Below are positions 137 to 12,530 of a stretch of DNA of 12,530 bases, piece after piece. Made by a program: the position numbers and the translations under genes. The stretch lies in UHGV virus genome UHGV-1654121; one strand, written 5' to 3'. Below the pieces are notes generated by a model that did no database searches, was not told the DNA's origin, and saw nothing but the letters and a program-made list of their open reading frames with translations. Position 1 is the first letter of the stretch. Each line of letters begins with the position of its first letter. The DNA comes from a virus.

Positions 137-349
137 ATGAAAAAAATAACTTCTAATTTGATCGCCCTTGAGGTCGGACATACGGTTTCAATTGACGATG
201 ATGGGGCAGCAGCCATACTCACTGAACTGCCAACAAAGTCTTTGTTACTTGACATGAAAGACGCAACCGCATACATCTTTGAGCTAAAGGGCAAGTGCTT
301 CACTCTCATCAATACCGGCTGCGGTTCAGTAGCCGTCCGCACTATTTAA
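137..349 (+). CDS. Small hypothetical protein (70 aa)
   Basis: Complete ORF with ATG start at 137; weak GGA-type purine stretch 6-12 nt upstream; mixed charged/hydrophobic composition; same orientation as downstream genes. No recognisable motif. Confidence 0.35.
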   Translation: MKKITSNLIALEVGHTVSIDDDGAAAILTELPTKSLLLDMKDATAYIFELKGKCFTLINTGCGSVAVRTI

Positions 350-375
350 CACCCCCCTCCCATCCTCTCTAGCGC

Positions 376-408
376 CTGTACGAACAGATTAGATGCCTGT
401 TCGTACAG
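376..408 (+). promoter_or_regulatory. Perfect 12-bp inverted repeat (ctgtacgaacag N9 ctgttcgtacag) preceded by a 21-nt polypyrimidine tract; stem-loop or operator candidate
   Basis: Read directly: 376-387 ctgtacgaacag is the exact reverse complement of 397-408 ctgttcgtacag, with a 9-nt loop; 350-370 is C/T only (cacccccctcccatcctctct). No T-run follows, so it is not a canonical intrinsic terminator. Confidence 0.4.
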
Positions 409-461
409 TGATAAATTACGCACATCAGAAAACAAATTGTTTTAACAACAAGGAAATTCTA

Positions 462-2690
462 ATGTCCAAAAAAACCACCAAAGCTGTACTGAAAGAGGTG
501 CAGGATTTTCGCGACTGTGTAAAACGAGTTGTAGCGATGCTTTCAGGTAAACAGATACCTGTTGCAGAACGAGGCAATGAAGCATATGTCCGCTATAACC
601 GGCGCGGCGAACCAGTGCTGGTAAACATCCCATCTATACCGGACGACGCGTCGCCAACCCTCATGAACGTAGTGCGTGGTTTTCTCGACCATGAGGTGGC
701 CCATATTCTCTTTACTGAACCGAAAGTCGCAATGCAGATGCGCGAAAGAGGAAAGGCTCCGTCTACGGGGCTTTGGAATGCGCTGGAAGACGTTTTTATT
801 GAACGCAGAATGGGGCAGGTCTTTAACGGAACCCGGCGTAATTTACTTGCAACACAGAGTCTGGTTATCGACAAATACTTCAGGAATAAAGTACCAGAAG
901 CGGTTTTAGCCTGTCACGGAGACCAGCGTGAATTGTTTTTGAAATTCTTCCTTTGCCCGGTCGTCCGCGCCTGGGATGGACAAAGCCCCTTCATCGATTT
1001 TATGGAAGAACACTGGCGCCTTATCGAGAGGCCGGTAGCCTTACTAAAGGAGCATGGTATAGACGTGGCCGTTCGCAATATGTCGAACACTGAGGATTGC
1101 GTGAAGGTCGCTGCTGCTATAGCCCAAATCATGCAGGATATGAAAGACAAGCCAGAGGGCAAATTACCAGAACTTAAATCATCTGCCAGAAAGCCGTCGG
1201 AGAGCAAAGACGAGTCCGAGGAAACGCCAGAATCAGGTGACGAGCCGTCTCATGGTGACTCTGCATCTAAGCCTGCCAAAGGCGAAGGCGATGACAAGGA
1301 AGAACGAGAAGATGATGCATCAGAAGAGGAAGATTCTGGGGATTCCGATTTGCCTGATTCGTTAGATAAGGACTTACCTACACACGTTAAAGATATTAGT
1401 GATACAGAAAGTAAATATACAGAAGCAGGCCACGAAGAGTCAGGAGACACCCCAGAATCCGATGCTATCGGCATGAAATCAAGTGACTCTGACACCGATG
1501 GTGATGACGGTGAGGACTCCGATACTGATCGTGGGGAAACTGAAGAAGACGTCGAAGGCAAAAAAAATAAAGATGGTGCGGAAGTGCCCAAAGACAGTGA
1601 GTCTGGCTTTGTTCCTGCGCCGGATGAAATGACTCTGGAGGAGGCGCTAAAGGCGCTCGACGAGATGGAAGACGGAATCGGTGAAATGACCGAAGACGCA
1701 CTGTCGGCCACCATCAGCAAAGAGCTTATGAGCGTCTCACCTTCTGATTATCGGCCATACGATCGATCATACGACTTTATCGGGTTGATTGATGGAGCCG
1801 AAGAGCATGTGAAGCGCACCAGAAAGACGTTCGGTGCAATACCAATGCACTCACCAGTCGACCGCTACCGTATGGTGCCAGAAGGCAGAAAACTCTTTGA
1901 ACTGAAAATCGAAAAACATCTGTCTGCAGGCGTTTCTTCGACGCTGGCCAAAGACCTGGAGCGGGCCATCGCCAGCCGCAACCGAGTTCAGTTTATACCT
2001 GGTCAGAGGCGTGGGCGGATACATGGCGCGAGCCTGTATCGTCTGGCAATGAACGACGACCGAGTGTTCCGCAAGAAGGAAGACCATAGAGCGGTGAACG
2101 CGTGTGTCCAGCAGGTCATCGACTTGTCCGGCTCAATGGATGGCGTGAAGATTCAACTGGCCCTAGCCAGTGCCTATACCATTGCGGATGCTTTAGATCG
2201 TATCAATGTCCCCAACATCATCACCGGCTTTACCACGTTCGGTAGCCCAGATTATGAAACCAGGTCGAAGCGCGGGTTTACACGCTTCGAGGCGCTCATG
2301 CTGCCCATTATCAAAAACTGGAATGAGAAAGCAAACTCTCCAGAGATCCGTGCTCGCATGGGATGCGTATGTGAGACGTTCCCCCTGCTCAATAACGTCG
2401 ATGGTGAGAGTGTCGCGCAACTGGCTACCCTGTTTGCAGGGCGAATGGAGGACAAAAAGATCATGCTGGTTATGAGTGATGGGGAGCCATGTGCTACAGG
2501 TAGTGGATTCCATCAGCATTTACGAACCGTCACCAAAGAAATTGAGACCTTGAGCGACATCGAACTGATGGCTATCGGCATTCTGACCGACGAACCACGG
2601 CGTTACTACAAAAATTACGCACTGGTTAACAGTGTTGAAGAGTTAGGGCCGTCAGTCGTCACTGAGTTATCTCGTATCATTCTTGGGTAA
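462..2690 (+). CDS. CobT-like vWA-domain protein (partner of a MoxR/CobS-type AAA+ ATPase), with HExxH motif and long acidic low-complexity segment
   Basis: Start set at ATG 462 (in frame with track ORF 393..2690) because AAGGAA at 450-455 lies 6 nt upstream and the 393 ATG is buried in the 376-408 hairpin. HEVAH encoded at 690-704; D/E/S-rich low-complexity segment about 1150-1700; MIDAS-like DLSGSMDG encoded around 2121-2135 followed by vWA-like sequence (ITGFTTFG...MSDGEP). Confidence 0.75.
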   Translation: MSKKTTKAVLKEVQDFRDCVKRVVAMLSGKQIPVAERGNEAYVRYNRRGEPVLVNIPSIPDDASPTLMNVVRGFLDHEVAHILFTEPKVAMQMRERGKAPSTGLWNALEDVFIERRMGQVFNGTRRNLLATQSLVIDKYFRNKVPEAVLACHGDQRELFLKFFLCPVVRAWDGQSPFIDFMEEHWRLIERPVALLKEHGIDVAVRNMSNTEDCVKVAAAIAQIMQDMKDKPEGKLPELKSSARKPSESKDESEETPESGDEPSHGDSASKPAKGEGDDKEEREDDASEEEDSGDSDLPDSLDKDLPTHVKDISDTESKYTEAGHEESGDTPESDAIGMKSSDSDTDGDDGEDSDTDRGETEEDVEGKKNKDGAEVPKDSESGFVPAPDEMTLEEALKALDEMEDGIGEMTEDALSATISKELMSVSPSDYRPYDRSYDFIGLIDGAEEHVKRTRKTFGAIPMHSPVDRYRMVPEGRKLFELKIEKHLSAGVSSTLAKDLERAIASRNRVQFIPGQRRGRIHGASLYRLAMNDDRVFRKKEDHRAVNACVQQVIDLSGSMDGVKIQLALASAYTIADALDRINVPNIITGFTTFGSPDYETRSKRGFTRFEALMLPIIKNWNEKANSPEIRARMGCVCETFPLLNNVDGESVAQLATLFAGRMEDKKIMLVMSDGEPCATGSGFHQHLRTVTKEIETLSDIELMAIGILTDEPRRYYKNYALVNSVEELGPSVVTELSRIILG

Positions 2691-2785
2691 TAGCTTTACC
2701 CTTAAAAATAAGTAACTACTTACTATACAGCCTAATATATTTCTATAAGATATACCCCACAAACGACAAACAGTAAGGAAAAAAC
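2691..2785 (+). promoter_or_regulatory. AT-rich intergenic region between the vWA and AAA+ genes; possible internal promoter plus RBS
   Basis: 95-nt AT-rich spacer (ttactatacagcctaatatatttctataagatata) ending in AAGGA at 2775-2779, 6 nt before ATG 2786. No exact T4 late-promoter TATAAATA box found. Confidence 0.2.
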
Positions 2786-4021
2786 ATGACCGCTACTGCA
2801 CTACAGCAAGAAGAACATTTGCCGGAAGCCATCGTCTGCAAGTGGTGTGGCAAATCCTTTCATTACCTGAAATCCCATATCTCTATGGGCCGTTGCGAGA
2901 ATATTCCTGAGTCTGCGAAGGGTCTGGACGTGGACGAAGTGGTGAAGATGTACACCTCTGCGTTTCCAGATGAACCAACGATCTCTCGCACGGCACTGGC
3001 CAAACTCAATGAGAAGCGTGCCGAAAAAAATTCATGCGAAGGAAAGGTAGCGGAGATTAGCGCACATCCGGGCTACGCAGGAACGGTCGAATACAAGACC
3101 GAACTGGTGGCCGCGCACGAGCTGCTTGGCGTAACGATCAAAGAGCTGGGAACGCCACGCGGAAAGCCACTACAGGTGACAGTCAACGTCAACACGCCCT
3201 ATCCGGAGTTCGTACCGGAAGCGAAGAAAAACTATGTGTATGGCGACTTCGACCTGATCAAAGACATCTTTATGATGCTGGAAATCGGAATCCCGGGTTA
3301 TCTCTGGGGCCATGCAGGAACCGGTAAATCTTCTCTTCCTACGCAGCTATGTGCCCTGCTAAATCGACCACTGATCCGCGCCCAGCATACGGCATCTATG
3401 GAGGAAGCGCACGTTACAGGCCAGATCCTCGCTCGCGATGGTTCCACCTATTTCGAACCGGGTTTACTAGCGCTGGCGATGAAAAATGGTTGGGTTTACC
3501 TCGCTGATGAATATGACTTCGCGTTCCCGCAGATTCTGGGTGTGTATCAGCCAGTTCTTGAAGGAGAGCCGCTGATCATCAAAGAGGCAACTGCGGACTG
3601 GCGCCGCATCACCCCGCATAAACGCTTTGCCTTCATTGGCACTGGCAACACTAACGGCTCTGGCGACGAAACAGGTCTCTATCAAGGCACAAACATCCAG
3701 AACGCAGCGAACTTCTCGCGTTTTGGCATTGTTTCAAACGTGAAGTACATGAGTACGAAGGCAGAAGTCAACATGCTGGCTGAAGCAGGCGTCATCCGCG
3801 AATACGCCGAGAAGATGGTGAAGTTCGCGAATCTTATCCGTGAAGGTTATGAAAAGCATCAGATTAGCCAGCCAATCGGGCCTCGTGAGCTGCTGCTGTC
3901 CGCCAAAATCGGAATGATGCGCGGTGATTTCTCTGCCGGCATCGAAAAGTCGTTTATCAATAAACTTCCATCCACGTCTGCACAGGCAGCGCGTGAAGTG
4001 GTTCAGAAGATCTTTGGTTAA
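2786..4021 (+). CDS. CobS-like / MoxR-family AAA+ ATPase
   Basis: Walker A GHAGTGKS encoded at 3308-3331; downstream ...WVYLADEYDFAFPQ... consistent with a Walker B region; strong RBS; immediately downstream of the vWA partner, the usual pairing for MoxR/CobS-vWA systems. N-terminus carries a Cys/His cluster (CKWCGKSFHYLKSHISMGRC). Confidence 0.8.
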   Translation: MTATALQQEEHLPEAIVCKWCGKSFHYLKSHISMGRCENIPESAKGLDVDEVVKMYTSAFPDEPTISRTALAKLNEKRAEKNSCEGKVAEISAHPGYAGTVEYKTELVAAHELLGVTIKELGTPRGKPLQVTVNVNTPYPEFVPEAKKNYVYGDFDLIKDIFMMLEIGIPGYLWGHAGTGKSSLPTQLCALLNRPLIRAQHTASMEEAHVTGQILARDGSTYFEPGLLALAMKNGWVYLADEYDFAFPQILGVYQPVLEGEPLIIKEATADWRRITPHKRFAFIGTGNTNGSGDETGLYQGTNIQNAANFSRFGIVSNVKYMSTKAEVNMLAEAGVIREYAEKMVKFANLIREGYEKHQISQPIGPRELLLSAKIGMMRGDFSAGIEKSFINKLPSTSAQAAREVVQKIFG

Positions 4022-4023
4022 TC

Positions 4024-4227
4024 GTGCGTAAAGGATGTTTCGGCTCTCTTATCGCAGCGTCTGAAACTGGCAGTGCTTGTTTGGCATGTCCGGATAGCCC
4101 CGAGTGCCACCAGTCAGCCAAAGAGGTTGCGATTTCGATGTATGGGAAGTTCGTTGGCTTCCCCAATGACAAAATCAAGAAAACCAGAAAGGTAAAAGCA
4201 CATGAAGGCTCTGATGGTCAGAACTGA
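4024..4227 (+). CDS. Possible small Cys-rich protein (67 aa, GTG start); doubtful
   Basis: ORF begins with GTG 2 nt after the upstream stop and overlaps the polymerase start by 26 nt; contains CLACPDSPEC (CxxC...C). No convincing RBS for the GTG; internal ATG at 4138 has AAGAGG 11 nt upstream. Could equally be non-coding leader. Confidence 0.2.
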   Translation: MRKGCFGSLIAASETGSACLACPDSPECHQSAKEVAISMYGKFVGFPNDKIKKTRKVKAHEGSDGQN

Positions 4228-7200
4228 CTTCTCCCTGGGAGAGTCAGCTCTAAAAGCAGAAAACGCGATGAAAATCGCGAGAGACGCTGGCTACACCGCT
4301 GTCATTTCCGCTGACAGCATGAACATTGCCAGTGTGATCCCCCTGCAGCGTGCCGCTGGCGACGACATGGCGGTTATTTGTGGTGTTAAGCTGAATGTGG
4401 TCGACGATCCGACATACGAGCACCGCGCTCGCTTGGCGAAAGAGTCAGGAAGATGTATGGAATCATTAGTTCGTGATCGCAGCTACTGCTTCACGGCACT
4501 GATAAAGAATGAACAAGGTTATCGCGACGTGTGCGAACTGATGACCTTAGCGAACAAGCGCGAGCAATTCTACTTTGTCCCGCGTCTGGCGCTTGAGCAG
4601 CTGGCAGCCGCATATGCCAAAGGCAACATCATCCTGCTGACGTCCGACATTGGCAGTGTATTCCAGCGCCGGGACTTCGCAAAAATTATCGGGACGCTGG
4701 TCACAGCTGGCGGTCGCGATAACTTCTACAGCGTGGTTTATCCGCACCCTACCCCATTCTACGACCAGATTAACGTCCGGGCGATGAAAGTGGCGAGCGC
4801 ACTGAAAATAGAGCCAGTGGCGTTCTATCCCGCTTATTACGAAGCGATCGACGACGCTGACATTAAAGACATTGCGCACATGGTTACGAACAACATCAAA
4901 ATCGACCAGCCGCATCGTCTGCGCATCCCCCACCAGCGAGATAACGCTGTTAATGGTCGTCGCCATCTCCTTGAAGCGCTGAAAGCCTTCTCCGTTCGCA
5001 TGGGCGTACCGGTAACAGCTGCAATGGCCTCAACAACGCAGGACACCATTATTGAAGCCTGCACATGGCGCTGGCATGAACTGCCACCAGCACTGCCCAA
5101 GATGGCAGACGACGAGCCTGCAACGCTGATGAAGCTGGCTGTCGCGGGGCTACGCAAGCGTCTAACTACTAAAGAGTTTGGCTACACACCACCGGCTTCT
5201 GAGCACCGAGTGTATGTTGAGCGACTGAAGTACGAAATGGACACACTGACCCGTCTGGGCTTCTGTGGCTACTTCCTGATGGTACGCGATCTGATGAATC
5301 ACAGCCGTGAAACTGGCATTCCTGTCGGGCCAGGTCGTGGTTCCTCTGCCGGTTCTCTGGTGGCGTGGTGCATAGGCATAACCAACGTCGATCCTATCCG
5401 TCACGGTCTTCTGTTTGAGCGTTTCATCAACCCTGAACGTCTTGACTTACCGGATGCGGATCTGGACTTCAGCCAGGCACGTCGTCATGAGGTGATCGAG
5501 TATCTGAATGAACGCTATGGCGAAGATTACGTTGCCGGTATTCCAAACTTCACCTATCTGGGCGCCGCTTCTGCGCTGCGAGACACTGCGCGTATTTACG
5601 GTGTCGACGCTGCGGATATGGCGGTATCCAAAGAGTTCAAGAATCTGGAAGACGATAGCCTGTCTCTGGAAGAGCTGCGCGAGCAACTGGCCAGCCTGGA
5701 CAAATACGCCACGAAAAACCCGGAAGCGTTCAAAGCGGCGTGTAAGCTACAAAGCCTGATGCGTGGTTTTGGCCGTCATGCAGCGGGGATGATCGTCGCT
5801 GGCGTTCCACTGGTAGAGCGCACGCCCGTCGAGCTGCGTGGCAACGCTCGCTGTATTGCATTCGATAAACGTTACTGCGAGGCAATGGGGCTGATTAAGC
5901 TGGACGTTCTCGGTCTGGCAACGCTCGATCTGCTGGATAGCGCGAAACGCTACATCAAAGAGAGTACCGGGGAAGACATCAATCTCGATGCTATCCCACT
6001 GGACGATCGCAAAGTTCTGGATGGGTTCGCTGCAGGGTACACTCAGGGCGTATTCCAGCTGGAGTCCGGCCCCATGCGCAAGCTGCTTAAAGATCTGGGC
6101 GGTGGCATTGAGCCAATGAGCTTCAAAACCGTTGTCGCCACGACCGCACTCTTCCGACCTGGCCCGATTCAATCAGGCATGTTGGACGACTATGTCTCCG
6201 TGGCCAAAGGCTTCATGGCTCCACAGTCGCTGCACCCGGTACTGGACGAGCTTACCGCGGAAACCAACGGCGTGATTCTGTATCAGGAACAGACGATGAA
6301 CGCGACACGATTGCTGGCCGGCTTCACGATGGCCGAAGCAGATGGTGTGCGTAAAGCGATCGGTAAAAAGGATATGGAAAAGATGAAGAGCATGGGCGAG
6401 AAGTTCGTCGTTCAGGCTCAAGCTGGTTGGATCGACGTTGAGATGGAAGACGGCACAACGCAGCGTATTCACCGCGCGGAACACTTCAAATGTGAGGACG
6501 GCGCACTGCGGACGGTCGAAGAAGCGCTGGAGGCAGGTGTAAAATTGCCTATGGCTGCTGTACGCGTTACAGGGTCACAACCGGGCTTGTCTGAGACGAA
6601 AGCTAAGGAGATCTGGGATGCCTTCGAGAAGAACGGTGCGTATCAGTTCAACAAATCACACTCCGTTGCTTACTCGCTGATCAGCTATCAGTCTATGTGG
6701 TTAAAGACACATTACCCTGCTGAGTTCTTCGCTGCTGCGCTCACCATTCTGGGCGAGGATAAGCACCAGGGCTTAGTTAAAGATGCGCTGACCTATGGCA
6801 TTCGCGTATTGCCACCAGACGTTAACGTTTCATCTAACCGAATTGAGATCCGCACGCTGGAAGACGGCAGTCAGGTTCTGTATGCACCATTCTCTGCTGT
6901 GAAAGGCTGCTCTGAGAATGGTTGCCAGGCCATCATGAGAGCGCGTGAGAAAGTTGGCGGCAAATTCGAATCACTGGCGCAATTTGAGGAATCTGTCGAG
7001 AAGCGAGCATGTAACAGCCGGGTACGCGAGTCGCTGCAAAAAGTCGGTGCGTTCGCATCGATTGAGCCTGGCTGTCTGCCAGCGACAGATCCGGAACGGC
7101 TGCGCGACCAGGCAGAGTTGATGGGTAATCTGGTGATCGACGCTGTAAAAGCCTCTCGACCGTTCGAGATGAACCCTAAGCGCTCTGCTGAAGTAAATGT

Positions 7201-7720
7201 ACTGATGACGCGCATGGCGGCCGAAATGGGGCTGGGAGACAATCTAATCCGTCCAAGCATTGGTATTAAGCCAAAAATCATGGTTATTCTGGACAACGCG
7301 AACGGCAATGATGGGCGTACCGGCTACTTCATGGAGAACGGCTACGACGACTTTAAGGCGAAGTTGCTTACTGCCGGCGATCTGCGTATGGGCGATCTCT
7401 ACGTCACCGGCGTGTGCAAAAAGGTGAAGGACAAAGAGAAGGACTACACCAAAGACGAGATCGGTCAGTTCACCGACTTTATGCGTGAAGAGATCAATCT
7501 GGTGCGTCCGACCTATGTACTGACGTGTGGCAGCCGGGCGACGTCGCTCTTCAACAACAAGAGCAAACCATCCGACCTGGTTGGACGCAAAGAGTATCTG
7601 CCGGAGCTGGATGCGACCGTTTTCTACGGATTTAACCCGAATATCCTTTACTTCCGACCGGAAGAAGGAGAGCGACTGGAGGCCATTCTGACTGATATTG
7701 CGGAGACGATAAATAAGTAA
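4202..7720 (+). CDS. DnaE-type DNA polymerase (Pol III alpha-like catalytic subunit) with degenerate N-terminal PHP domain and atypical C-terminal domain
   Basis: Family-C polymerase signature blocks present: GPGRGSSAGSLVAWCIGIT..DP....LLFERFINPER, catalytic PDADLDF (Asp codons at 5453, 5459, 5465), AFDKRY, LYQEQTM, FNKSHSVAYSLISYQ..WLKTHYPAEF, then an HhH-like region. N-terminus (MVRTDFSLGES...AVISADS) lacks the His-x-His and TDH metal ligands of active PHP domains. The last roughly 150 aa (about 7259-7717) do not resemble the OB-fold/tau-binding tail. Confidence 0.9.
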   Translation: MKALMVRTDFSLGESALKAENAMKIARDAGYTAVISADSMNIASVIPLQRAAGDDMAVICGVKLNVVDDPTYEHRARLAKESGRCMESLVRDRSYCFTALIKNEQGYRDVCELMTLANKREQFYFVPRLALEQLAAAYAKGNIILLTSDIGSVFQRRDFAKIIGTLVTAGGRDNFYSVVYPHPTPFYDQINVRAMKVASALKIEPVAFYPAYYEAIDDADIKDIAHMVTNNIKIDQPHRLRIPHQRDNAVNGRRHLLEALKAFSVRMGVPVTAAMASTTQDTIIEACTWRWHELPPALPKMADDEPATLMKLAVAGLRKRLTTKEFGYTPPASEHRVYVERLKYEMDTLTRLGFCGYFLMVRDLMNHSRETGIPVGPGRGSSAGSLVAWCIGITNVDPIRHGLLFERFINPERLDLPDADLDFSQARRHEVIEYLNERYGEDYVAGIPNFTYLGAASALRDTARIYGVDAADMAVSKEFKNLEDDSLSLEELREQLASLDKYATKNPEAFKAACKLQSLMRGFGRHAAGMIVAGVPLVERTPVELRGNARCIAFDKRYCEAMGLIKLDVLGLATLDLLDSAKRYIKESTGEDINLDAIPLDDRKVLDGFAAGYTQGVFQLESGPMRKLLKDLGGGIEPMSFKTVVATTALFRPGPIQSGMLDDYVSVAKGFMAPQSLHPVLDELTAETNGVILYQEQTMNATRLLAGFTMAEADGVRKAIGKKDMEKMKSMGEKFVVQAQAGWIDVEMEDGTTQRIHRAEHFKCEDGALRTVEEALEAGVKLPMAAVRVTGSQPGLSETKAKEIWDAFEKNGAYQFNKSHSVAYSLISYQSMWLKTHYPAEFFAAALTILGEDKHQGLVKDALTYGIRVLPPDVNVSSNRIEIRTLEDGSQVLYAPFSAVKGCSENGCQAIMRAREKVGGKFESLAQFEESVEKRACNSRVRESLQKVGAFASIEPGCLPATDPERLRDQAELMGNLVIDAVKASRPFEMNPKRSAEVNVLMTRMAAEMGLGDNLIRPSIGIKPKIMVILDNANGNDGRTGYFMENGYDDFKAKLLTAGDLRMGDLYVTGVCKKVKDKEKDYTKDEIGQFTDFMREEINLVRPTYVLTCGSRATSLFNNKSKPSDLVGRKEYLPELDATVFYGFNPNILYFRPEEGERLEAILTDIAETINK

Positions 7721-7725
7721 TAAAG

Positions 7726-7750
7726 AAAAACCCGCCAAATGGCGGGTTTT
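7726..7750. terminator. Bidirectional rho-independent terminator between convergent genes
   Basis: aaaaa-CCCGCC-aaat-GGCGGG-tttt: 6-bp GC stem (7731-7736 / 7741-7746), 4-nt loop, A-tract upstream and T-tract downstream, placed 6 nt after the polymerase stop and overlapping the last codons of the convergent - strand gene. Confidence 0.7.
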
Positions 7751-8309
7751 ATGCGCAAATTTTTTCGCAGTCTTGCGAGTGACTGAGTGAGCGAGTAACT
7801 CTCTCCACCTCATGAATGTCGCCCAACGATCTTATACGCAGGGCAAGATTCCACGTACTCAATGTGCGCGCGTTACGCACCAGTTCTTCCCGTGCTTTTT
7901 CGTCTTTGCTGTCAAGACGACCGCAGTCGTTCAACCATTTAGCGACTTCCGCCCAGTCCCAGAGTGGAGACTGACCGCTGATACGCTGAACAGGGCAAGG
8001 AAAATCACCTTTGCCACGTAATCCGTCTTTAAGCAGAGTAATAGCCTGGCGCGTTAAGCCAGAGAGTTGAGCAATATCGCTCAAGCCTACCAGTGCTGAA
8101 TCTACCGATTCCACCACTGCGCCAATGCCTGCTGTTTCAATATCAAGGATTGCCGATTCGATTGCTTCATCTAAAGATTTAGCTTCTCGGTCAAATTCTA
8201 CATACACTGAGTTTCCGTAGTAGCAAATGAGCGCATCATCGCAACCGTGGCTATACAGAGCATCTGCGACTACACAGTACTGACTACAGGTTATCAGAAT
8301 TATCCCCAT
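7749..8309 (-). CDS. DNA-binding protein with C-terminal excisionase/AlpA-type HTH; N-terminal domain weakly HicB-like
   Basis: Only - strand gene in the window. C-terminal half LSDIAQLSGLTRQAITLLKDGLRGKGDFPCPVQRISGQSPLWDWAEVAKWL fits the HTH followed by a conserved W..EV..WL pattern seen in AlpA/excisionase-like HTH domains. N-terminal half (YSHGCDDAL...DREAKSLDEAIESAILDIE) loosely resembles the HicB-type antitoxin fold. No obvious SD upstream of the ATG at 8309. Confidence 0.55.
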   Translation of the reverse strand: MGIILITCSQYCVVADALYSHGCDDALICYYGNSVYVEFDREAKSLDEAIESAILDIETAGIGAVVESVDSALVGLSDIAQLSGLTRQAITLLKDGLRGKGDFPCPVQRISGQSPLWDWAEVAKWLNDCGRLDSKDEKAREELVRNARTLSTWNLALRIRSLGDIHEVERVTRSLSHSQDCEKICA

Positions 8310-8376
8310 TTACATCAGCTTATCTACGTCAGCCCTCAAGTTCTTCAGCAAGCCAGCTCCACCGCCTGATTCCAAC

Positions 8377-8850
8377 ATGATAAAATTGATATACGAAAAT
8401 AAGTATATAGATAACATTATGAGCACCGATATCTACGAAAAAATCATGTCCGATCTGGAGTTCGACCGCGACAATCTGGAGGAAGTCTGGCGTCAGCAAC
8501 CGCGCCTGTTGATGGAGTATGGCTCTAAGCTGGCGCGGGCAGAACGTGAGGTTGCAGATGCAAAACTCTCTCTCGACGCGATCGAGGCAAAAATCTATGA
8601 CAACGAGCGTAAGAGCTTGAGTATGAATGGAATTAAATTTAATGAATCCGTACTGGAAGCGAAGGTTAGAACCAACCCGCAATACCTCGCAAAGCGCCAG
8701 AAACTCGACGATGCTCGACACATTGCAGACCTGTACAAGCACGCTGTAGCCGCCTTCTCCCACCGCCGCGATATGATTGTCCAGGCGTCGAAGATGGCTA
8801 TCGTAGAGATAGAGCGTCTGGGGGCCGAACGATTCCATTTACCCCGTTAA
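8377..8850 (+). CDS. Coiled-coil protein, possibly a UvsY-like recombination mediator
   Basis: Charged, helix-rich 157-aa ORF co-oriented with the downstream SSB; length and coiled-coil character resemble UvsY, but no signature motif is confidently matched. Start uncertain (ATG 8377 or ATG 8419; neither has a clear SD). Preferred over the overlapping - strand ORF 8329..8838, which has antisense-like L/R/C/F-rich composition. Confidence 0.5.
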   Translation: MIKLIYENKYIDNIMSTDIYEKIMSDLEFDRDNLEEVWRQQPRLLMEYGSKLARAEREVADAKLSLDAIEAKIYDNERKSLSMNGIKFNESVLEAKVRTNPQYLAKRQKLDDARHIADLYKHAVAAFSHRRDMIVQASKMAIVEIERLGAERFHLPR

Positions 8851-8969
8851 TTTATGCTAGATAGTAAGTAAGTACTGATCTATCATTCTTCTCGCTCGAA
8901 AGAGCCACGAACAAACGAACGCCCAATGCGCATAGCGCCAATGGCCACAATCACAACAAGGAGAAATAC

Positions 8970-9986
8970 ATGTCTAAGTCATTACTTGATCTGCTTAACA
9001 AGACCCGTGGCGATATTGCTTCCAAACGTGGCAATAACATTGATTTGACCCGTCTGAAAGATGGCAATAACTATCTGCGCATTTTTCCGAACAAGGACGA
9101 TCCGAATGGCGTGTTCTTCCAGACTTTCGGTATGCACTACGTTAAGCATCAGAATGAGGAAGGCAAAGATGTAACCACCGCCTATATCTGCGAACAACAC
9201 ACCCACGGCCACGCTTGCCAGCTGTGTGAGATGGTTATGGAAGGTCGCGCTCGCTTTAAGGGCAACAAAGCGATGGAAGAGCGCATTAATAGTATGCGTG
9301 CTACGCCGCGTTATCTGGTCAACGGTGTTCTGTCTGCGCGTGAAGACTTTGCGGACGCAGAGAAATGCCAGCTGATTGAGCTGCCGTCTACGGTCTTCGA
9401 CGATATCTGCAAAGTGATGTCCGAAGATATTGCGGACGATATTGGCAACCCACTGAGCAAAGAAGAAGGCTATGCGTTCCTGATTAAACGCACCGGTTCC
9501 GGTCGTGACACCAAGTACGACGTATCCCCGAAACGTAAAGTCTACAAAGGCGACATTCCTGAGAAGCTCTGGACTACCCAACACGATCTGATCGCATATG
9601 CGAACCAGGCTGACGAAACTCGTTTGCTGTCCACGGCTCGCACTATGGGTCGTCTGATTGGTATTGCGGCTCCGGCAGCAACTATGTCCTCACCAGCCAT
9701 TTCTTCCGCTGCAAAATCAGCCGCAGCTGGACTGCCAGGCTTTGGCTCTATCACTGGTCATACGGAAGGCGCAGCTGCTGTCGCTACAGCACATACTCCG
9801 GCGCCAGAGTCCACCAGCCTGGTTGATGAAGAGATCCTGCGTGCCGCTGAAGCTGAGTTCAAACCGGAAGAAGCGAAAGCTCCGGAAGCCACCGAAGCCG
9901 CAAGTGCTTCAGCATCTGCTGCCGCTGCATCTGTACCAGCTGATGAAGGTCTCGATAACCTGCTGGCTGAACTGGACGCTCTGTAA
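8970..9986 (+). CDS. T4 gp32-like single-stranded DNA-binding protein
   Basis: AAGGAG at 8958-8963 with a 6-nt spacer. N-terminal block LRIFPNKDDPNGVFF and His/Cys cluster H60...C74-x8-C83-x2-C86 (encoded about 9147-9227) parallel the gp32 Zn-binding subdomain (H-x12-C-x9-C-x2-C in T4). Ala/Ser-rich linker and acidic C-terminal tail (...DEGLDNLLAELDAL) are typical of SSB partner-interaction tails. Confidence 0.8.
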   Translation: MSKSLLDLLNKTRGDIASKRGNNIDLTRLKDGNNYLRIFPNKDDPNGVFFQTFGMHYVKHQNEEGKDVTTAYICEQHTHGHACQLCEMVMEGRARFKGNKAMEERINSMRATPRYLVNGVLSAREDFADAEKCQLIELPSTVFDDICKVMSEDIADDIGNPLSKEEGYAFLIKRTGSGRDTKYDVSPKRKVYKGDIPEKLWTTQHDLIAYANQADETRLLSTARTMGRLIGIAAPAATMSSPAISSAAKSAAAGLPGFGSITGHTEGAAAVATAHTPAPESTSLVDEEILRAAEAEFKPEEAKAPEATEAASASASAAAASVPADEGLDNLLAELDAL

Positions 9987-10002
9987 TCCCATAACGTGAC
10001 CA

Positions 10003-10031
10003 GTAAGGCGTCTGCGGACGCCTTACTTTTT
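10003..10031 (+). terminator. Rho-independent terminator downstream of the SSB gene
   Basis: gtaaggcgtc-tgcg-gacgccttac followed by ttttt: 10-bp stem (10003-10012 / 10017-10026), 4-nt loop, T-run 10027-10031; located 17 nt after the SSB stop codon. Confidence 0.75.
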
Positions 10032-10046
10032 GGAAGGAGTGTACCG

Positions 10047-10991
10047 GTGAATTATCTCTTTGTGGACGGTAACAGCCTGGGCTATTACCACCAGCAATCC
10101 GACAAATTACACAACGGCGAGATGGAAGTTCAGGCGGCTTTTGGCTTCGTGAAGAACGTTCGTCGTTACGCCTCAATTCTCCATGCCCGGCCAATGATCT
10201 TGTGGGATGGATTCAGCGACAAACGTCGCGACTTCTACCCGGAGTACAAAGCGAACCGCGACGACGACCCGGACATGAAGAAGATGAAAGAAGGCTTTGC
10301 CATCCAGAAGCCGTACATCTTGAAAATGATGACCGCGCTGGGCGTTAACCAACTCATTGCAAAGGACGCAGAAGCGGATGACCTGGCTGGAATGCTGGTC
10401 TCTCGTCTGGCTCCGCAGCCGACTGTTGACCATATCTATCTGCTAACGGGCGATGGCGACTGGCTCCAGCTTGTTCGTGAGAACGTGAGCTGGATAAGCC
10501 TGCGTGAAGACGCCAAGCACAAGCAGGTGAACTTCGAACAGTTCGCAGAGCTGACCGGTCTGCCGACCCCACGCGCGTTTCTGGAAGCGAAAGCGTTGCA
10601 GGGCGATAACTCGGACAACATCAAAGGCGTAGGTGGCATTGGTGATGGTGGCGCGAAAGAGCTGCTTCATGAATGGGGAAGCGTGGCCGCAATGGTACGC
10701 GGCATTAACGACGGTTCCATTGTCATCAACAAAGGTCGCTATAAGACGGCATTCAACAAGCTGGCAAAGAACGCCTTCAACGAGAAGACGGGCTGCCGGA
10801 TGCTCGAAGCCTTTAAGCGCAACATGATGCTGATGAACCTTATCGACACAAAATTCCCACCCAGCGAAATCGAGTCGATTAAAGGCGCACGCGATATGAG
10901 CGCCTTTGAACAGATGTGTTACGAGCTGAATTTCCGTTCGTTTCTGGAAGATCTGGAAGTGTTTGTTCTGCCGTTTGAGAGGTATTGCTGA
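10047..10991 (+). CDS. 5'-3' exonuclease / flap endonuclease (FEN, T4 RNase H / Pol I 5'-exo family)
   Basis: Conserved FEN blocks: (M)NYLFVDGNSLGYY, ILWDGFSDKRRDFYPEYKANRDD, EADDLAGML, LLTGDGDWLQLV, H3TH-like GDNSDNIKGVGGIG. Start placed at GTG 10047 (GGAAGGAG at 10032-10039, 7-nt spacer) rather than track start 9996, because the intervening sequence is the 10003-10031 terminator. Confidence 0.85.
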   Translation: MNYLFVDGNSLGYYHQQSDKLHNGEMEVQAAFGFVKNVRRYASILHARPMILWDGFSDKRRDFYPEYKANRDDDPDMKKMKEGFAIQKPYILKMMTALGVNQLIAKDAEADDLAGMLVSRLAPQPTVDHIYLLTGDGDWLQLVRENVSWISLREDAKHKQVNFEQFAELTGLPTPRAFLEAKALQGDNSDNIKGVGGIGDGGAKELLHEWGSVAAMVRGINDGSIVINKGRYKTAFNKLAKNAFNEKTGCRMLEAFKRNMMLMNLIDTKFPPSEIESIKGARDMSAFEQMCYELNFRSFLEDLEVFVLPFERYC

Positions 10992-11257
10992 TGCTGAAAT
11001 CCATCATTAATGGCGGGGCAACTACGCCAACCATGCTGGCAAAGGAGATTGTTTTCTGCCACGGCGAGCACGCTGTGGTAGCGCTGCCGAACATTCTGGG
11101 CGCTGCTGGCATTTCTGCTACTGAGCGTGAGTTCGCGCTGGTCAGTGAGCAGGTCGTGAAGATCATCGCTCGCGTCGCCAAACACCTGAACCACGACGCA
11201 ATCAAGTTTGACGAAGCCGCTGCTTCGAAGCGAATCAACGAATCAAAAGGAGCCTAA
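10991..11257 (+). CDS. Small hypothetical protein (88 aa from the ATG)
   Basis: ATG at 10991 overlaps the FEN stop codon (TGATG, 1-nt overlap), suggesting translational coupling; ends 2 nt before the recombinase RBS/start. Track lists it from TTG 10985. No recognisable motif. Confidence 0.45.
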   Translation: MLKSIINGGATTPTMLAKEIVFCHGEHAVVALPNILGAAGISATEREFALVSEQVVKIIARVAKHLNHDAIKFDEAAASKRINESKGA

Positions 11258-11259
11258 TC

Positions 11260-12530
11260 ATGGCAAAAGGCAAATCCGCACTGGCACTGGCGCTGAAAAA
11301 GAAAATCGGCAGCAATGACGAGATTCAGAAGGTCTCCCACTGGATTGACTCCGGTTTCCCTCCACTGAACAAAGCCATTTCCGGACGTTACGACGGTGGT
11401 TTTCCGTGTGGGCGTATCGTTGAAGTCTTCGGGCCACCAAGCGCGGGGAAATGTGTTACCGCAGACACCATGCTGCTGACGGAGCGTGGAATGGTAACAG
11501 TGAAAGAACTGTTTGAGATTGAGGGGCACAAAGCAACATGCACTACTCGCGATGTAGAGCATAACGTTGGACTCATCAATGAAAATGGCGTGATAGAGAA
11601 GACCTCACACCTGACATGGAACAACCGTCGCAAATTCAAGCGCATTAAGCTGGCATCAGGGGGTTACATCGAGGCTACGTTCCGTCACCCAATTCGTGTG
11701 GTTGACGACTTAGGCAATATCGTCTGGCGGTATGCTGAAAAAATCAGTGTAGGCGACACGATTCCTTCAATGGTTGGCACACATCAATTCGGCGATCAGC
11801 ACTTGGATGCCAATATCGCAAAACTGATGGGCTATTTAATTGCTGACGGATACGTGGCCTCTGAAAATTCTGTGCATTTTTCTAACACAGCTCCATTCAT
11901 CAAGGATGAGTACTACCGCCTCATTTCGCTGGTATCAGACAAGATGCCAGTTACGAGAAAACATAACGGCTCGGAAGACCATGTGCTGTTTAGCAAAGAG
12001 GTGCGTTCGCTGCTTTTTAAAGAATATGGTCTGGAGTATGAGAAAGCTGCTTGCAAGCAGGTTCAGTTGAGTGTGCGTCGCGCCAATAGCGAGGCTCAAA
12101 TTGCATTCCTTCGCGGCTACTTTGAGCTGGAATGCCACGTCAATGATGGTCGCTGCATTGAGGTTGTGAGCGCGAGTGGGCTGCTGCTACAGCAAATTCG
12201 CCTCATGCTCCTGAATCTGGGGATTGCGTCAACTATCTCTGAAAAACACGTCGCAGGTTATAAAAACATATATTACCGGCTGTCATTCAGTGGCTCTAAC
12301 TACGACCTTTTCCTGTCAACGATTGGGTTCGAGTCTCCGGCTCGTTTAGCAGTGGCAACCAAACGGGACATTAGTTTTGACCGCACTTATTTAGGCTACG
12401 TTCCGCACATCAGCGGCTTAGTGAAATCACTCTACGAGTCACTCACCAAGACCTCTCGTAAAGACTACGTTCTGGTAGATCACGTTCTTGGCCGCGGCGA
12501 TCGTGTCGGAATAGACAAACTGCGAGAAAT
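11260..12530 (+). CDS. RecA-like recombinase, N-extein plus intein-interrupted P-loop (partial; continues beyond window)
   Basis: AAGGAG at 11247-11252, ATG 11260. N-extein ...GFPCGRIVEVFGPPSAGK closely parallels bacterial RecA GRIVEIYGPESSGKT; the reading frame stays open to the window end. After GK the sequence switches to intein blocks (see mobile_element). Confidence 0.85.
   Translation, partial: MAKGKSALALALKKKIGSNDEIQKVSHWIDSGFPPLNKAISGRYDGGFPCGRIVEVFGPPSAGKCVTADTMLLTERGMVTVKELFEIEGHKATCTTRDVEHNVGLINENGVIEKTSHLTWNNRRKFKRIKLASGGYIEATFRHPIRVVDDLGNIVWRYAEKISVGDTIPSMVGTHQFGDQHLDANIAKLMGYLIADGYVASENSVHFSNTAPFIKDEYYRLISLVSDKMPVTRKHNGSEDHVLFSKEVRSLLFKEYGLEYEKAACKQVQLSVRRANSEAQIAFLRGYFELECHVNDGRCIEVVSASGLLLQQIRLMLLNLGIASTISEKHVAGYKNIYYRLSFSGSNYDLFLSTIGFESPARLAVATKRDISFDRTYLGYVPHISGLVKSLYESLTKTSRKDYVLVDHVLGRGDRVGIDKLRE
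11452..12530 (+). mobile_element. Intein with LAGLIDADG homing-endonuclease domain inserted in the Walker A (P-loop) of the recombinase (partial; C-terminal splice junction outside window)
   Basis: Intein block A starts at Cys codon TGT 11452-11454 (CVTADTMLLTERGMVTVKEL); block B-like GGYIEATFRHPIRV (T..H); LAGLIDADG motif 1 KLMGYLIADGYV (about 11824-11856); motif 2 AFLRGYFELECHV (about 12103-12135). Insertion directly after GPPSAGK implies the missing Thr of GKT is the +1 C-extein nucleophile. Confidence 0.8.

Follow-up and report, generated by a model that had tools for sequence, protein, structure and literature searches.

A probable SSU5-like phage-plasmid replication and recombination module combining a DnaE-type polymerase with a gp32-family single-stranded DNA-binding protein, a UvsY-like mediator and a RecA-type recombinase

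The window analyzed here, the whole 12.5-kb stretch (12,530 nucleotides) presented from virus genome UHGV-1654121, is probably the part of an SSU5-like phage-plasmid that holds its conserved module of replication and recombination genes; such phage-plasmids are temperate siphoviruses kept as low-copy plasmids in Enterobacteriaceae. It is laid out as a co-directional plus-strand gene block with a single minus-strand gene inside (Table 1), and by megablast it is 99.5% identical over 100% of its length to Escherichia coli plasmid NZ_CP122497.1, a non-mobilizable 107-kb IncFIB plasmid. In PLSDB, 820 plasmids match the window, with hosts that include Klebsiella, Escherichia, Enterobacter, Yersinia and Salmonella, among others. 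Salmonella phage SSU5 shares 93.7% DNA identity across window positions 333-11451, and E. coli phage Cyrano shares approximately 82%. Membership in the SSU5-like phage-plasmids thus follows from near-identical DNA and from a gene order that SSU5, pHCM2-type plasmids and Cyrano share with the window. The SSU5 supercommunity is a recognized group, described as the largest set of related phage-plasmids (PMC7969092), and Cyrano (pLF82) forms siphovirus particles and is present at about 5.5 copies per cell (PMC9928086). The structural module of SSU5 is likewise of the siphovirus type, with terminase, tape measure and minor tail proteins, and its genome also encodes a DnaB-like helicase (DnaB_C), a DnaG-like primase, a ligase, RNase HI, a Rep3-type RepA, an exonuclease of the RNase_T/DnaQ family (SSU5_086), and SbcCD-like and ribonucleotide reductase (RNR) genes. 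No family-B polymerase, gp41/61, clamp or clamp loader is annotated in SSU5, as judged from annotation and a few Pfam scans rather than from a sensitive search of all open reading frames (ORFs). The gene identities, the near-identity to known elements and the synteny with distant phages are direct results of these comparisons, and the mechanism described below is what we infer from them.

A preliminary description of the window, made from its letters alone, had named five genes: a family-C DnaE-type polymerase, a gp32-like single-stranded DNA-binding protein (SSB), a possible UvsY-like mediator, an RNase H/FEN-type exonuclease and a RecA-like (not UvsX-like) recombinase. All five were recovered with the same coordinates. 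The polymerase call is borne out by Pfam domains and conserved aspartates, the SSB by a full-length match to PF08804, the mediator by Foldseek, a profile-profile match and direct Pfam links for 8 of 57 family members, and the recombinase by 125 bits to RecA against 27 to UvsX. The exonuclease is indeed a FEN-type nuclease, but of the T5/Pol I type and without PF09293, and so is not the T4 hallmark that it had been taken for.

For the polymerase, Pfam recognizes PHP (1.5e-11), DNA_pol3_alpha (5.6e-73), finger (8.2e-45) and HHH_6 (1.4e-16) domains. The protein matches phrog_405, is 98.3% identical to SSU5 DnaE and, over the helix-hairpin-helix (HhH) region, matches Pol III alpha structures from E. 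coli and Thermus at about 1e-28. In a three-way alignment, aspartates D418, D420 and D555 of the PDxDxDF and FDK motifs, which we take to include the catalytic residues, are unchanged in E. coli DnaE. Polymerases of the DnaE type are frequent among phages, and 1317 phage records match this one.

Past the HhH region and a linker, the protein ends in a domain with the fold of a uracil-DNA glycosylase (UDG). AlphaFold modeled this domain at a pLDDT (predicted local distance difference test) of 83, and its top Foldseek matches in the PDB are the family-4 UDGs 4zbx (6.6e-11), 1ui1 and 1vk2, followed by UdgX; target-normalized template modeling (TM) scores are 0.73-0.79. The Pfam UDG match of the tail is weak (0.002; 18.6 bits for a cut-off of 24.3). 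Catalysis in family-4 enzymes presumably depends on the motifs GE[AG]PG and HPS, in place of which the tail has ILDNANGND and GFNPN, as seen by inspection rather than by structure-based residue mapping. Across the family of DnaE tails the position of the motif-A glutamate is taken by N, T, S, G or Y, and inspection of the UDG-like fold found two cysteines rather than the four Fe-S ligands of family 4. An active glycosylase was considered and is unlikely with motif positions that vary in this way; because the family-4 motif positions are unconserved within its family, the domain is probably not a glycosylase. This architecture has been described before, as an "unusual variant" of DnaE in strains of both Yersinia pestis and Salmonella enterica in which the oligonucleotide/oligosaccharide-binding (OB) and C-terminal domains have given way to a UDG domain of archaeal type (Timinskas et al. 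2014, NAR, PMC3919608).

Within the linker, positions Q30, L33, M34 and G35 of the QAELMG peptide (numbered by family alignment A2) are invariant or nearly so, at a local pLDDT of 50-64. Purely as a hypothesis drawn from its sequence, this peptide might bind the host beta clamp. Equivalence to QADMF, the internal clamp-binding peptide of E. coli alpha, was considered, but the three-way MAFFT alignment sets QAELMG opposite RAALMN instead. The gene itself is interrupted in some relatives, such as L015 (positions 2918-7170), where a free-standing HNH endonuclease gene (NUMOD4 plus HNH_3) splits dnaE into a 787-aa gene with PHP, Pol3 and finger domains and a 389-aa gene with HhH plus the UDG-like domain. 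The split point lies just after the insertion of about 47 residues, which the N-terminal fragment retains. Some C-terminal DnaE fragments are labeled "uracil-DNA glycosylase" by NCBI.

The SSB scores 241.9 bits against PF08804 (cut-off 26.8) and spans profile positions 1-208 of 208, compared with 226.4 bits for T4 gp32 itself, and its counterpart in Cyrano is annotated "SSB T4 gp32-like". Viewed by eye and at motif level for the zinc-binding His/Cys3 sub-domain of the gp32 family, it has a C74-x8-C83-x2-C86 motif with several histidines before it, where T4 has C-x9-C-x2-C (CSSTHGDYDSCPVCQ). BLASTP against T4 gp32 was not significant (E 0.061) and phmmer against the PDB gave no match; because these pairwise searches failed, membership in the gp32 family rests on Pfam. 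Proteins of this kind form a sizeable phage-wide group (PMC4889955). No product other than the gp32-type protein carries an SSB annotation in the SSU5 record. The protein differs in length among relatives, with 338 aa in the window and 296 aa in L015, and it ends (window positions 9600-9986) in a low-complexity tail of about 100 residues rich in Ala, Ser and Glu, with an acidic hydrophobic tip (DEGLDNLLAELDAL).

Homology of the 143-aa protein to UvsY appeared only through structure and after its family had been widened by an exhaustive HMMER search of 1.84 billion proteins. The protein has no Pfam match even at an E-value of 10, whereas T4 UvsY itself scores 179.5 bits against PF11056, and neither phmmer nor the family HMM found any match among PDB sequences. 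Its AlphaFold model is a helical bundle (pLDDT 87), for which the top 19 Foldseek matches in the PDB are all T4 UvsY chains, with target-normalized TM scores of 0.72-0.91 and root-mean-square deviations of 1.4-5.3 Å (at most 3.7 Å in 16 of the 19); the next matches, to unrelated coiled coils, have query-normalized TM scores of at most 0.5. The HMMER search returned a family of 2456 clusters at 50% identity. A profile of 57 members aligned with a T4-type UvsY profile in hhalign at 92.7% probability (E 4.3e-7) over 114 colinear columns, and 8 of the 57 match Pfam UvsY (PF11056) directly, the best at 5.7e-7. The Cyrano orthologue, CYRAN_52, is annotated "UvsY recombination mediator" by the curators of that record. 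On account of the fold, the deep profile match, the direct Pfam matches within the family and the Cyrano annotation, we accept the protein as a remote UvsY homologue. A nearly invariant arginine of the family (Arg64) aligns with Lys58 of T4 UvsY, which is suggestive only. The ORF called mechanically is longer (8377-8850, 157 aa); homologues start at M15, and translation probably begins at this 15th codon, nucleotide 8419. Many family members carry N-terminal extensions of about 100-280 residues, as in the 426-aa gp100 of Pseudomonas phage nickie (L004, positions 17462-18742), and homologues in phage records are all labeled "hypothetical protein" except for that of Cyrano.

Both halves of the nuclease are recognized by Pfam above cut-off, 5_3_exonuc_N at 86.5 bits and 5_3_exonuc (H3TH) at 46.8 bits. 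Its best solved relatives are the T5 5′-exonuclease (1exn, 7e-17) and the 5′-nuclease domains of Pol I. Against T4 rnh it shows 25% identity over 144 residues (E 6e-5), and Pfam does not find in it the C-terminal domain of T4 RNase H (PF09293), which T4 rnh carries at 235 bits.

In the window, recA is interrupted by an intein, and its 64-residue N-extein matches Pfam RecA weakly (4.7e-4, under the cut-off). The intein-free SSU5 orthologue matches PF00154 at 1e-42 and scores about 125 bits (about 1e-35) against bacterial RecA structures, compared with 27 bits (2e-5) against T4 UvsX (3io5) and about 1e-5 against RadA structures. Because the intein-free protein is far nearer to bacterial RecA than to UvsX, classifying the recombinase by sequence as RecA-type rather than UvsX-type is right. 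The intein matches LAGLIDADG_3 at 1.4e-17 and has an Intein_splicing match. The complete gene was found in a near-identical plasmid (L003, positions 17262-19601), where it encodes 779 aa with an intein of 421 aa (L003:17454-18716). The features of a class-1 intein are intact: Cys1, a TFRH block (block-B TxxH), a C-terminal His-Asn and a Thr at +1. Removal of the intein from GPPSAGK/C...HN/TFLAT yields GPPSAGKTFLAT, which equals SSU5 RecA across the junction and leaves Walker A intact. This P-loop intein occurs in 248 PLSDB plasmids, compared with the 820 that match the window; it is at least 99% identical in 159 of the 248, across Escherichia, Klebsiella, Enterobacter and Citrobacter, and the module flanking it is 80-93% identical between those host groups. 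Since the intein is so much better conserved than the surrounding module, its distribution suggests spread by recent homing.

Conservation of the module extends well beyond the SSU5 group. In Pseudomonas phage nickie the order is DnaB, DnaG, ligase, CobT, CobS, DnaE, a protein with a UvsY-like domain, SSB, nuclease, RecA, SbcD and SbcC, and identities to Nickievirus are 35.6% for DnaE (over 99% of its length), about 30% for the SSB, 28% for the UvsY-like domain, 33% for the nuclease and 45% for RecA. Because Nickievirus has the same order at 28-45% identity, the module has stayed together across a long evolutionary distance. Searches by tblastn with the SSB or the UvsY-like protein found no T4-like phage; matches were to SSU5-like elements, Nickievirus, Stenotrophomonas and Rhizobium phages, and some Bacillus phages.

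In the mechanism that we propose, the plasmid state would be copied from a RepA/iteron origin by host enzymes and, after induction, the element's own bacterial-style fork would take over. A DnaB-like helicase and a DnaG-like primase encoded upstream of the window would serve this fork, and its polymerase would be DnaE, with an apparently inactive UDG-like domain replacing the OB and tau-binding domains. As the element encodes no clamp or loader by annotation, DnaE possibly rides the host beta clamp. The gp32-family SSB would coat single strands, and the flap nuclease, RNase HI and ligase would mature Okazaki fragments. From what is established about recombinase loading in T4 and in E. coli, host RecFOR does not have a gp32-type SSB as its partner. 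Host RecFOR may not load the recombinase onto an SSB of this type, which would be why the element carries a UvsY-like mediator of its own, predicted to load its RecA-type recombinase onto gp32-coated DNA. The outcome would be recombination-dependent replication and fork repair as in the UvsX-UvsY-gp32 system of T4, but with a true RecA, which in the window copy would first have to splice out the intein in its ATP-binding loop.

We tentatively suggest, with somewhat less in favor of the idea than against it, that the SSU5 phage-plasmids, Nickievirus and the related Stenotrophomonas and Rhizobium phages represent a distinct replisome type, in which a clamp-loader-independent, UDG-tailed DnaE is combined with gp32 and UvsY loading a genuine RecA. 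Several points weigh against the mechanism proposed above. The UvsY link is remote and without a direct Pfam match, the Foldseek E-values are only about 3e-3 for what is a simple helical fold, and a shallow profile built from close relatives (Neff 1.7) reached only 5% probability in hhalign. The clamp-binding motif is uncertain, with QAELMG aligned by MAFFT to an E. coli segment other than QADMF. The lack of a clamp is read from annotation and a small number of Pfam scans, short of a sensitive search through every ORF. Finally, a literature search found no experiment or biochemistry on the proteins of the module, and for that reason we infer, rather than report, every functional step.

Three other explanations were weighed against that mechanism. 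The first, which we consider unlikely, is that gp32, UvsY and RecA form a trio for double-strand-break repair (for example after restriction or CRISPR cleavage) or for recombination and mosaicism, acting separately from the DnaE fork. Phages can often replicate without their recombinases, as with lambda Red and similar systems, which favors such a trio, as do the SbcCD-like and RuvC-like genes just downstream in SSU5 and Nickievirus. In the same neighborhood, however, the trio is tightly interleaved with replication genes and this arrangement (dnaE, uvsY, ssb, nuclease, recA) is conserved, and the fork must depend on the gp32-type protein as well, since SSU5 has no other annotated SSB. Repair and replication roles are, moreover, not mutually exclusive.

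The second explanation, more doubtful still, is that DnaE is a DnaE2-like accessory polymerase for repair or mutagenesis, whose UDG-like tail targets damaged or uracil-containing DNA, with host Pol III replicating the element. Plasmid-borne C-family polymerases are mostly DnaE2, some of them without OB and C-terminal domains, but the same survey left the UDG-tailed variant outside DnaE2, in an unassigned DnaEX set (PMC3919608). The missing tau-binding domain, through which the polymerase is connected with clamp loader and helicase, would fit an accessory role; against this, dnaE shares a single co-directional block with the genes for helicase, primase, ligase, SSB and flap nuclease, the block is conserved in Nickievirus phage isolates, and no imuA/imuB-type partners are annotated in SSU5. 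The UDG fold does suggest a link to base damage, yet its motif positions are unconserved within the family.

The third, very improbable and already largely refuted, is a T4-lineage replisome that kept gp32, UvsY and RNase H and had bacterial DnaE and RecA swapped in: the gp32-family membership of the SSB, the UvsY fold and profile match, and the distant homology of the nuclease to T4 rnh (E 6e-5) speak for it, but SSU5 has no other T4-type gene annotated and a siphovirus-type structural module, BLASTP of the SSB with T4 gp32 gave E 0.061, no T4-like phage is among the tblastn matches of the SSB or of the UvsY-like protein, the nuclease is nearer to T5 and Pol I and lacks PF09293, gp32-like SSBs occur in many phages (PMC4889955), and the UvsY-like family itself comprises 2456 clusters at 50% identity. 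The preliminary description had cast the SSB, mediator and exonuclease as T4 hallmarks in a combination atypical for T4-like phages, a framing that does not hold for an element with the siphovirus module of SSU5, with DnaB, DnaG, ligase and RepA, and with no T4-type replisome annotated. The whole-genome context that it proposed to check, namely gp43, gp41/61 and a clamp or loader, yielded none annotated in SSU5, and no part of the Straboviridae replisome (gp43, gp41 plus gp61, gp45, gp44/62) is annotated anywhere in that genome, according to annotation and Pfam rather than an exhaustive remote-homology search. Its suggestion of a distinct replisome lineage stands insofar as the module is a conserved unit in SSU5, the 820 plasmids and Nickievirus, but the module was already catalogued and is widespread in gut bacteria, and DnaE and gp32-family SSBs are common in phages. 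It had held that finding the exact gene order in a well-characterized phage genus with described replisome biochemistry would overturn the idea; the order is present in the sequenced phage SSU5 and in hundreds of plasmids, but no replisome biochemistry was found. In a limited sense, this is a replication-module lineage distinct from T4.

Outside these genes, a variable part of the module lies between dnaE and the uvsY-like gene (7721-8418), where a regulator-like gene sits as an accessory insertion. Its 186-aa product matches phrog_2620, "excisionase and transcriptional regulator", at 4.6e-85, and its homologue in Cyrano carries the annotation HicB antitoxin. The window lacks here both SSU5_055, annotated as a HicA toxin in Cyrano, and SSU5_053, a DUF7740 protein, and the antitoxin-like gene is thus present without its adjacent toxin gene. 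The 88-aa protein between nuclease and recA is also present in SSU5 (SSU5_059), L003 and L015, and a 67-aa Cys-rich protein (4024-4227, phrog_6337), also kept in SSU5, overlaps the start of dnaE by 26 nucleotides.

Table 1. Features of the window, in window coordinates.
Feature	Coordinates	Strand	Basis or remark
dnaE, C-family DNA polymerase, 1172 aa	4202..7720	+	PHP, Pol III alpha, finger, HhH, then linker and UDG-like domain
DnaE insertion of ~47 aa (aa ~742-790)	6425..6571	+	absent from E. coli and Nickievirus DnaE (three-way alignment)
QAELMG motif (DnaE aa 970-975)	7109..7126	+	low-confidence linker; candidate beta-clamp-binding peptide
UDG-like C-terminal domain of DnaE (aa ~990-1172)	7169..7717	+	AlphaFold and Foldseek; nearest fold is family 4
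GC-rich hairpin with T/A runs on both sides	7727..7750		between convergent dnaE and minus-strand gene; terminator-like, consensus match only
Regulator-like gene, 186 aa	7749..8309	-	accessory insertion in variable spot of module
UvsY-like recombination mediator, 143 aa	8419..8850	+	fold and profile homology
gp32-family SSB, 338 aa	8970..9986	+	PF08804, 9e-72; phrog_1192
5′-3′ flap endonuclease/exonuclease, T5 D15 / Pol I 5′-nuclease type	9996..10991	+	Pfam, PDB; public annotation starts at ~10047
Conserved 88-aa protein between nuclease and recA	10991..11257	+	phrog_2207, 3e-58
RecA N-extein, 64 aa	11260..11451	+	ends in Walker A sequence GPPSAGK
Intein with LAGLIDADG homing endonuclease in RecA P-loop	11452..12530	+	first 359 of 421 residues; window ends inside intein

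Directly upstream of dnaE (393-4021) are genes for a CobT-like VWA protein of 765 aa, whose middle part is acidic and of low complexity, and for a CobS-like AAA_5 ATPase of 411 aa, a pair found in the same position in the SSU5-like elements and in Pseudomonas phage nickie. Because it keeps this position in nickie, its placement hints at a role tied to replication rather than to cobalamin synthesis. The first 332 positions of the window are unmatched in SSU5 and matched in E. coli plasmids, and include the start of a 70-aa ORF (137-349). SSU5 has a tRNA-Asn upstream of its CobT-like gene, and the E. coli plasmids and Cyrano have an integrase and a repressor-like gene just upstream of this part. 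No tRNAs were found in the window, and promoter-like and terminator-like sites in it are no more common than in shuffled sequence, the hairpin at 7727-7750 alone being noteworthy.

The result is mainly a clean classification: the gene calls are correct, and the element is known and widely sequenced. Public records already contain the element and its gene order, the unusual architecture of DnaE and names for the recombination genes; a literature search found no paper naming SSU5 together with UvsY. If the proposed replisome type is real, UvsY-type mediators would be widespread partners of RecA-type recombinases far outside the T4-like phages (2456 clusters, nearly all unannotated), and a C-family polymerase of bacterial type could support recombination-dependent replication. 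In E. coli, Klebsiella, Salmonella and Yersinia, few extrachromosomal elements are as common as the SSU5-like phage-plasmids, some of which bear resistance genes. Their module naturally joins a fork of bacterial type to an SSB and a mediator of phage type, in a host that is open to genetics, and could be used to study how a UvsY-type mediator works with a true RecA and what a UDG-like domain does on a replicative polymerase.

Compared with known systems, the window is closest to the SSU5 supercommunity (the pHCM2, pMT1, pKpn and pSLy3 groups, and Cyrano/pLF82), which has these genes in an identical order; in the Cyrano record a UvsY mediator, a gp32-like SSB, RecA, an exonuclease and DnaE are named already. 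It differs from SSU5 in having the RecA intein, which SSU5 lacks, and in missing SSU5_053 and SSU5_055, a pair of small genes that lie between dnaE and the uvsY-like gene. The polymerase is 32% identical to E. coli DnaE1, and the two have in common PHP, palm, fingers, HhH and the conserved aspartates; the N-terminal PHP-motif histidines of the E. coli enzyme are replaced in the window protein, which has the UDG-like fold instead of an OB fold and tau-binding domain. This is exactly the architecture of the variant described by Timinskas et al., with which our structure prediction agrees. To their description we add that the family-4 motif positions are unconserved and that the UDG-tailed architecture extends to Nickievirus (99% coverage).

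Nickievirus has the same module order at only 28-45% protein identity, and differs in that its UvsY-like domain forms the C-terminal portion of a protein of 426 aa, in having no intein, and in showing no plasmid genes in the 32 kb examined. By comparison, the presynaptic system of T4 (UvsX, UvsY and gp32) is alike in that the same three roles are encoded near each other. T4 gp32 and the SSB of the window belong to one Pfam family, and T4 UvsY and the window's mediator share a fold, with profiles that align along their whole length, yet neither T4 protein is detectable by pairwise comparison with its counterpart. The T4 recombinase is UvsX, whereas that of the window is RecA-type, and the SSU5-type replisome has a C-family polymerase and a DnaB/DnaG-type helicase and primase, with no gp45 or gp44/62 annotated.

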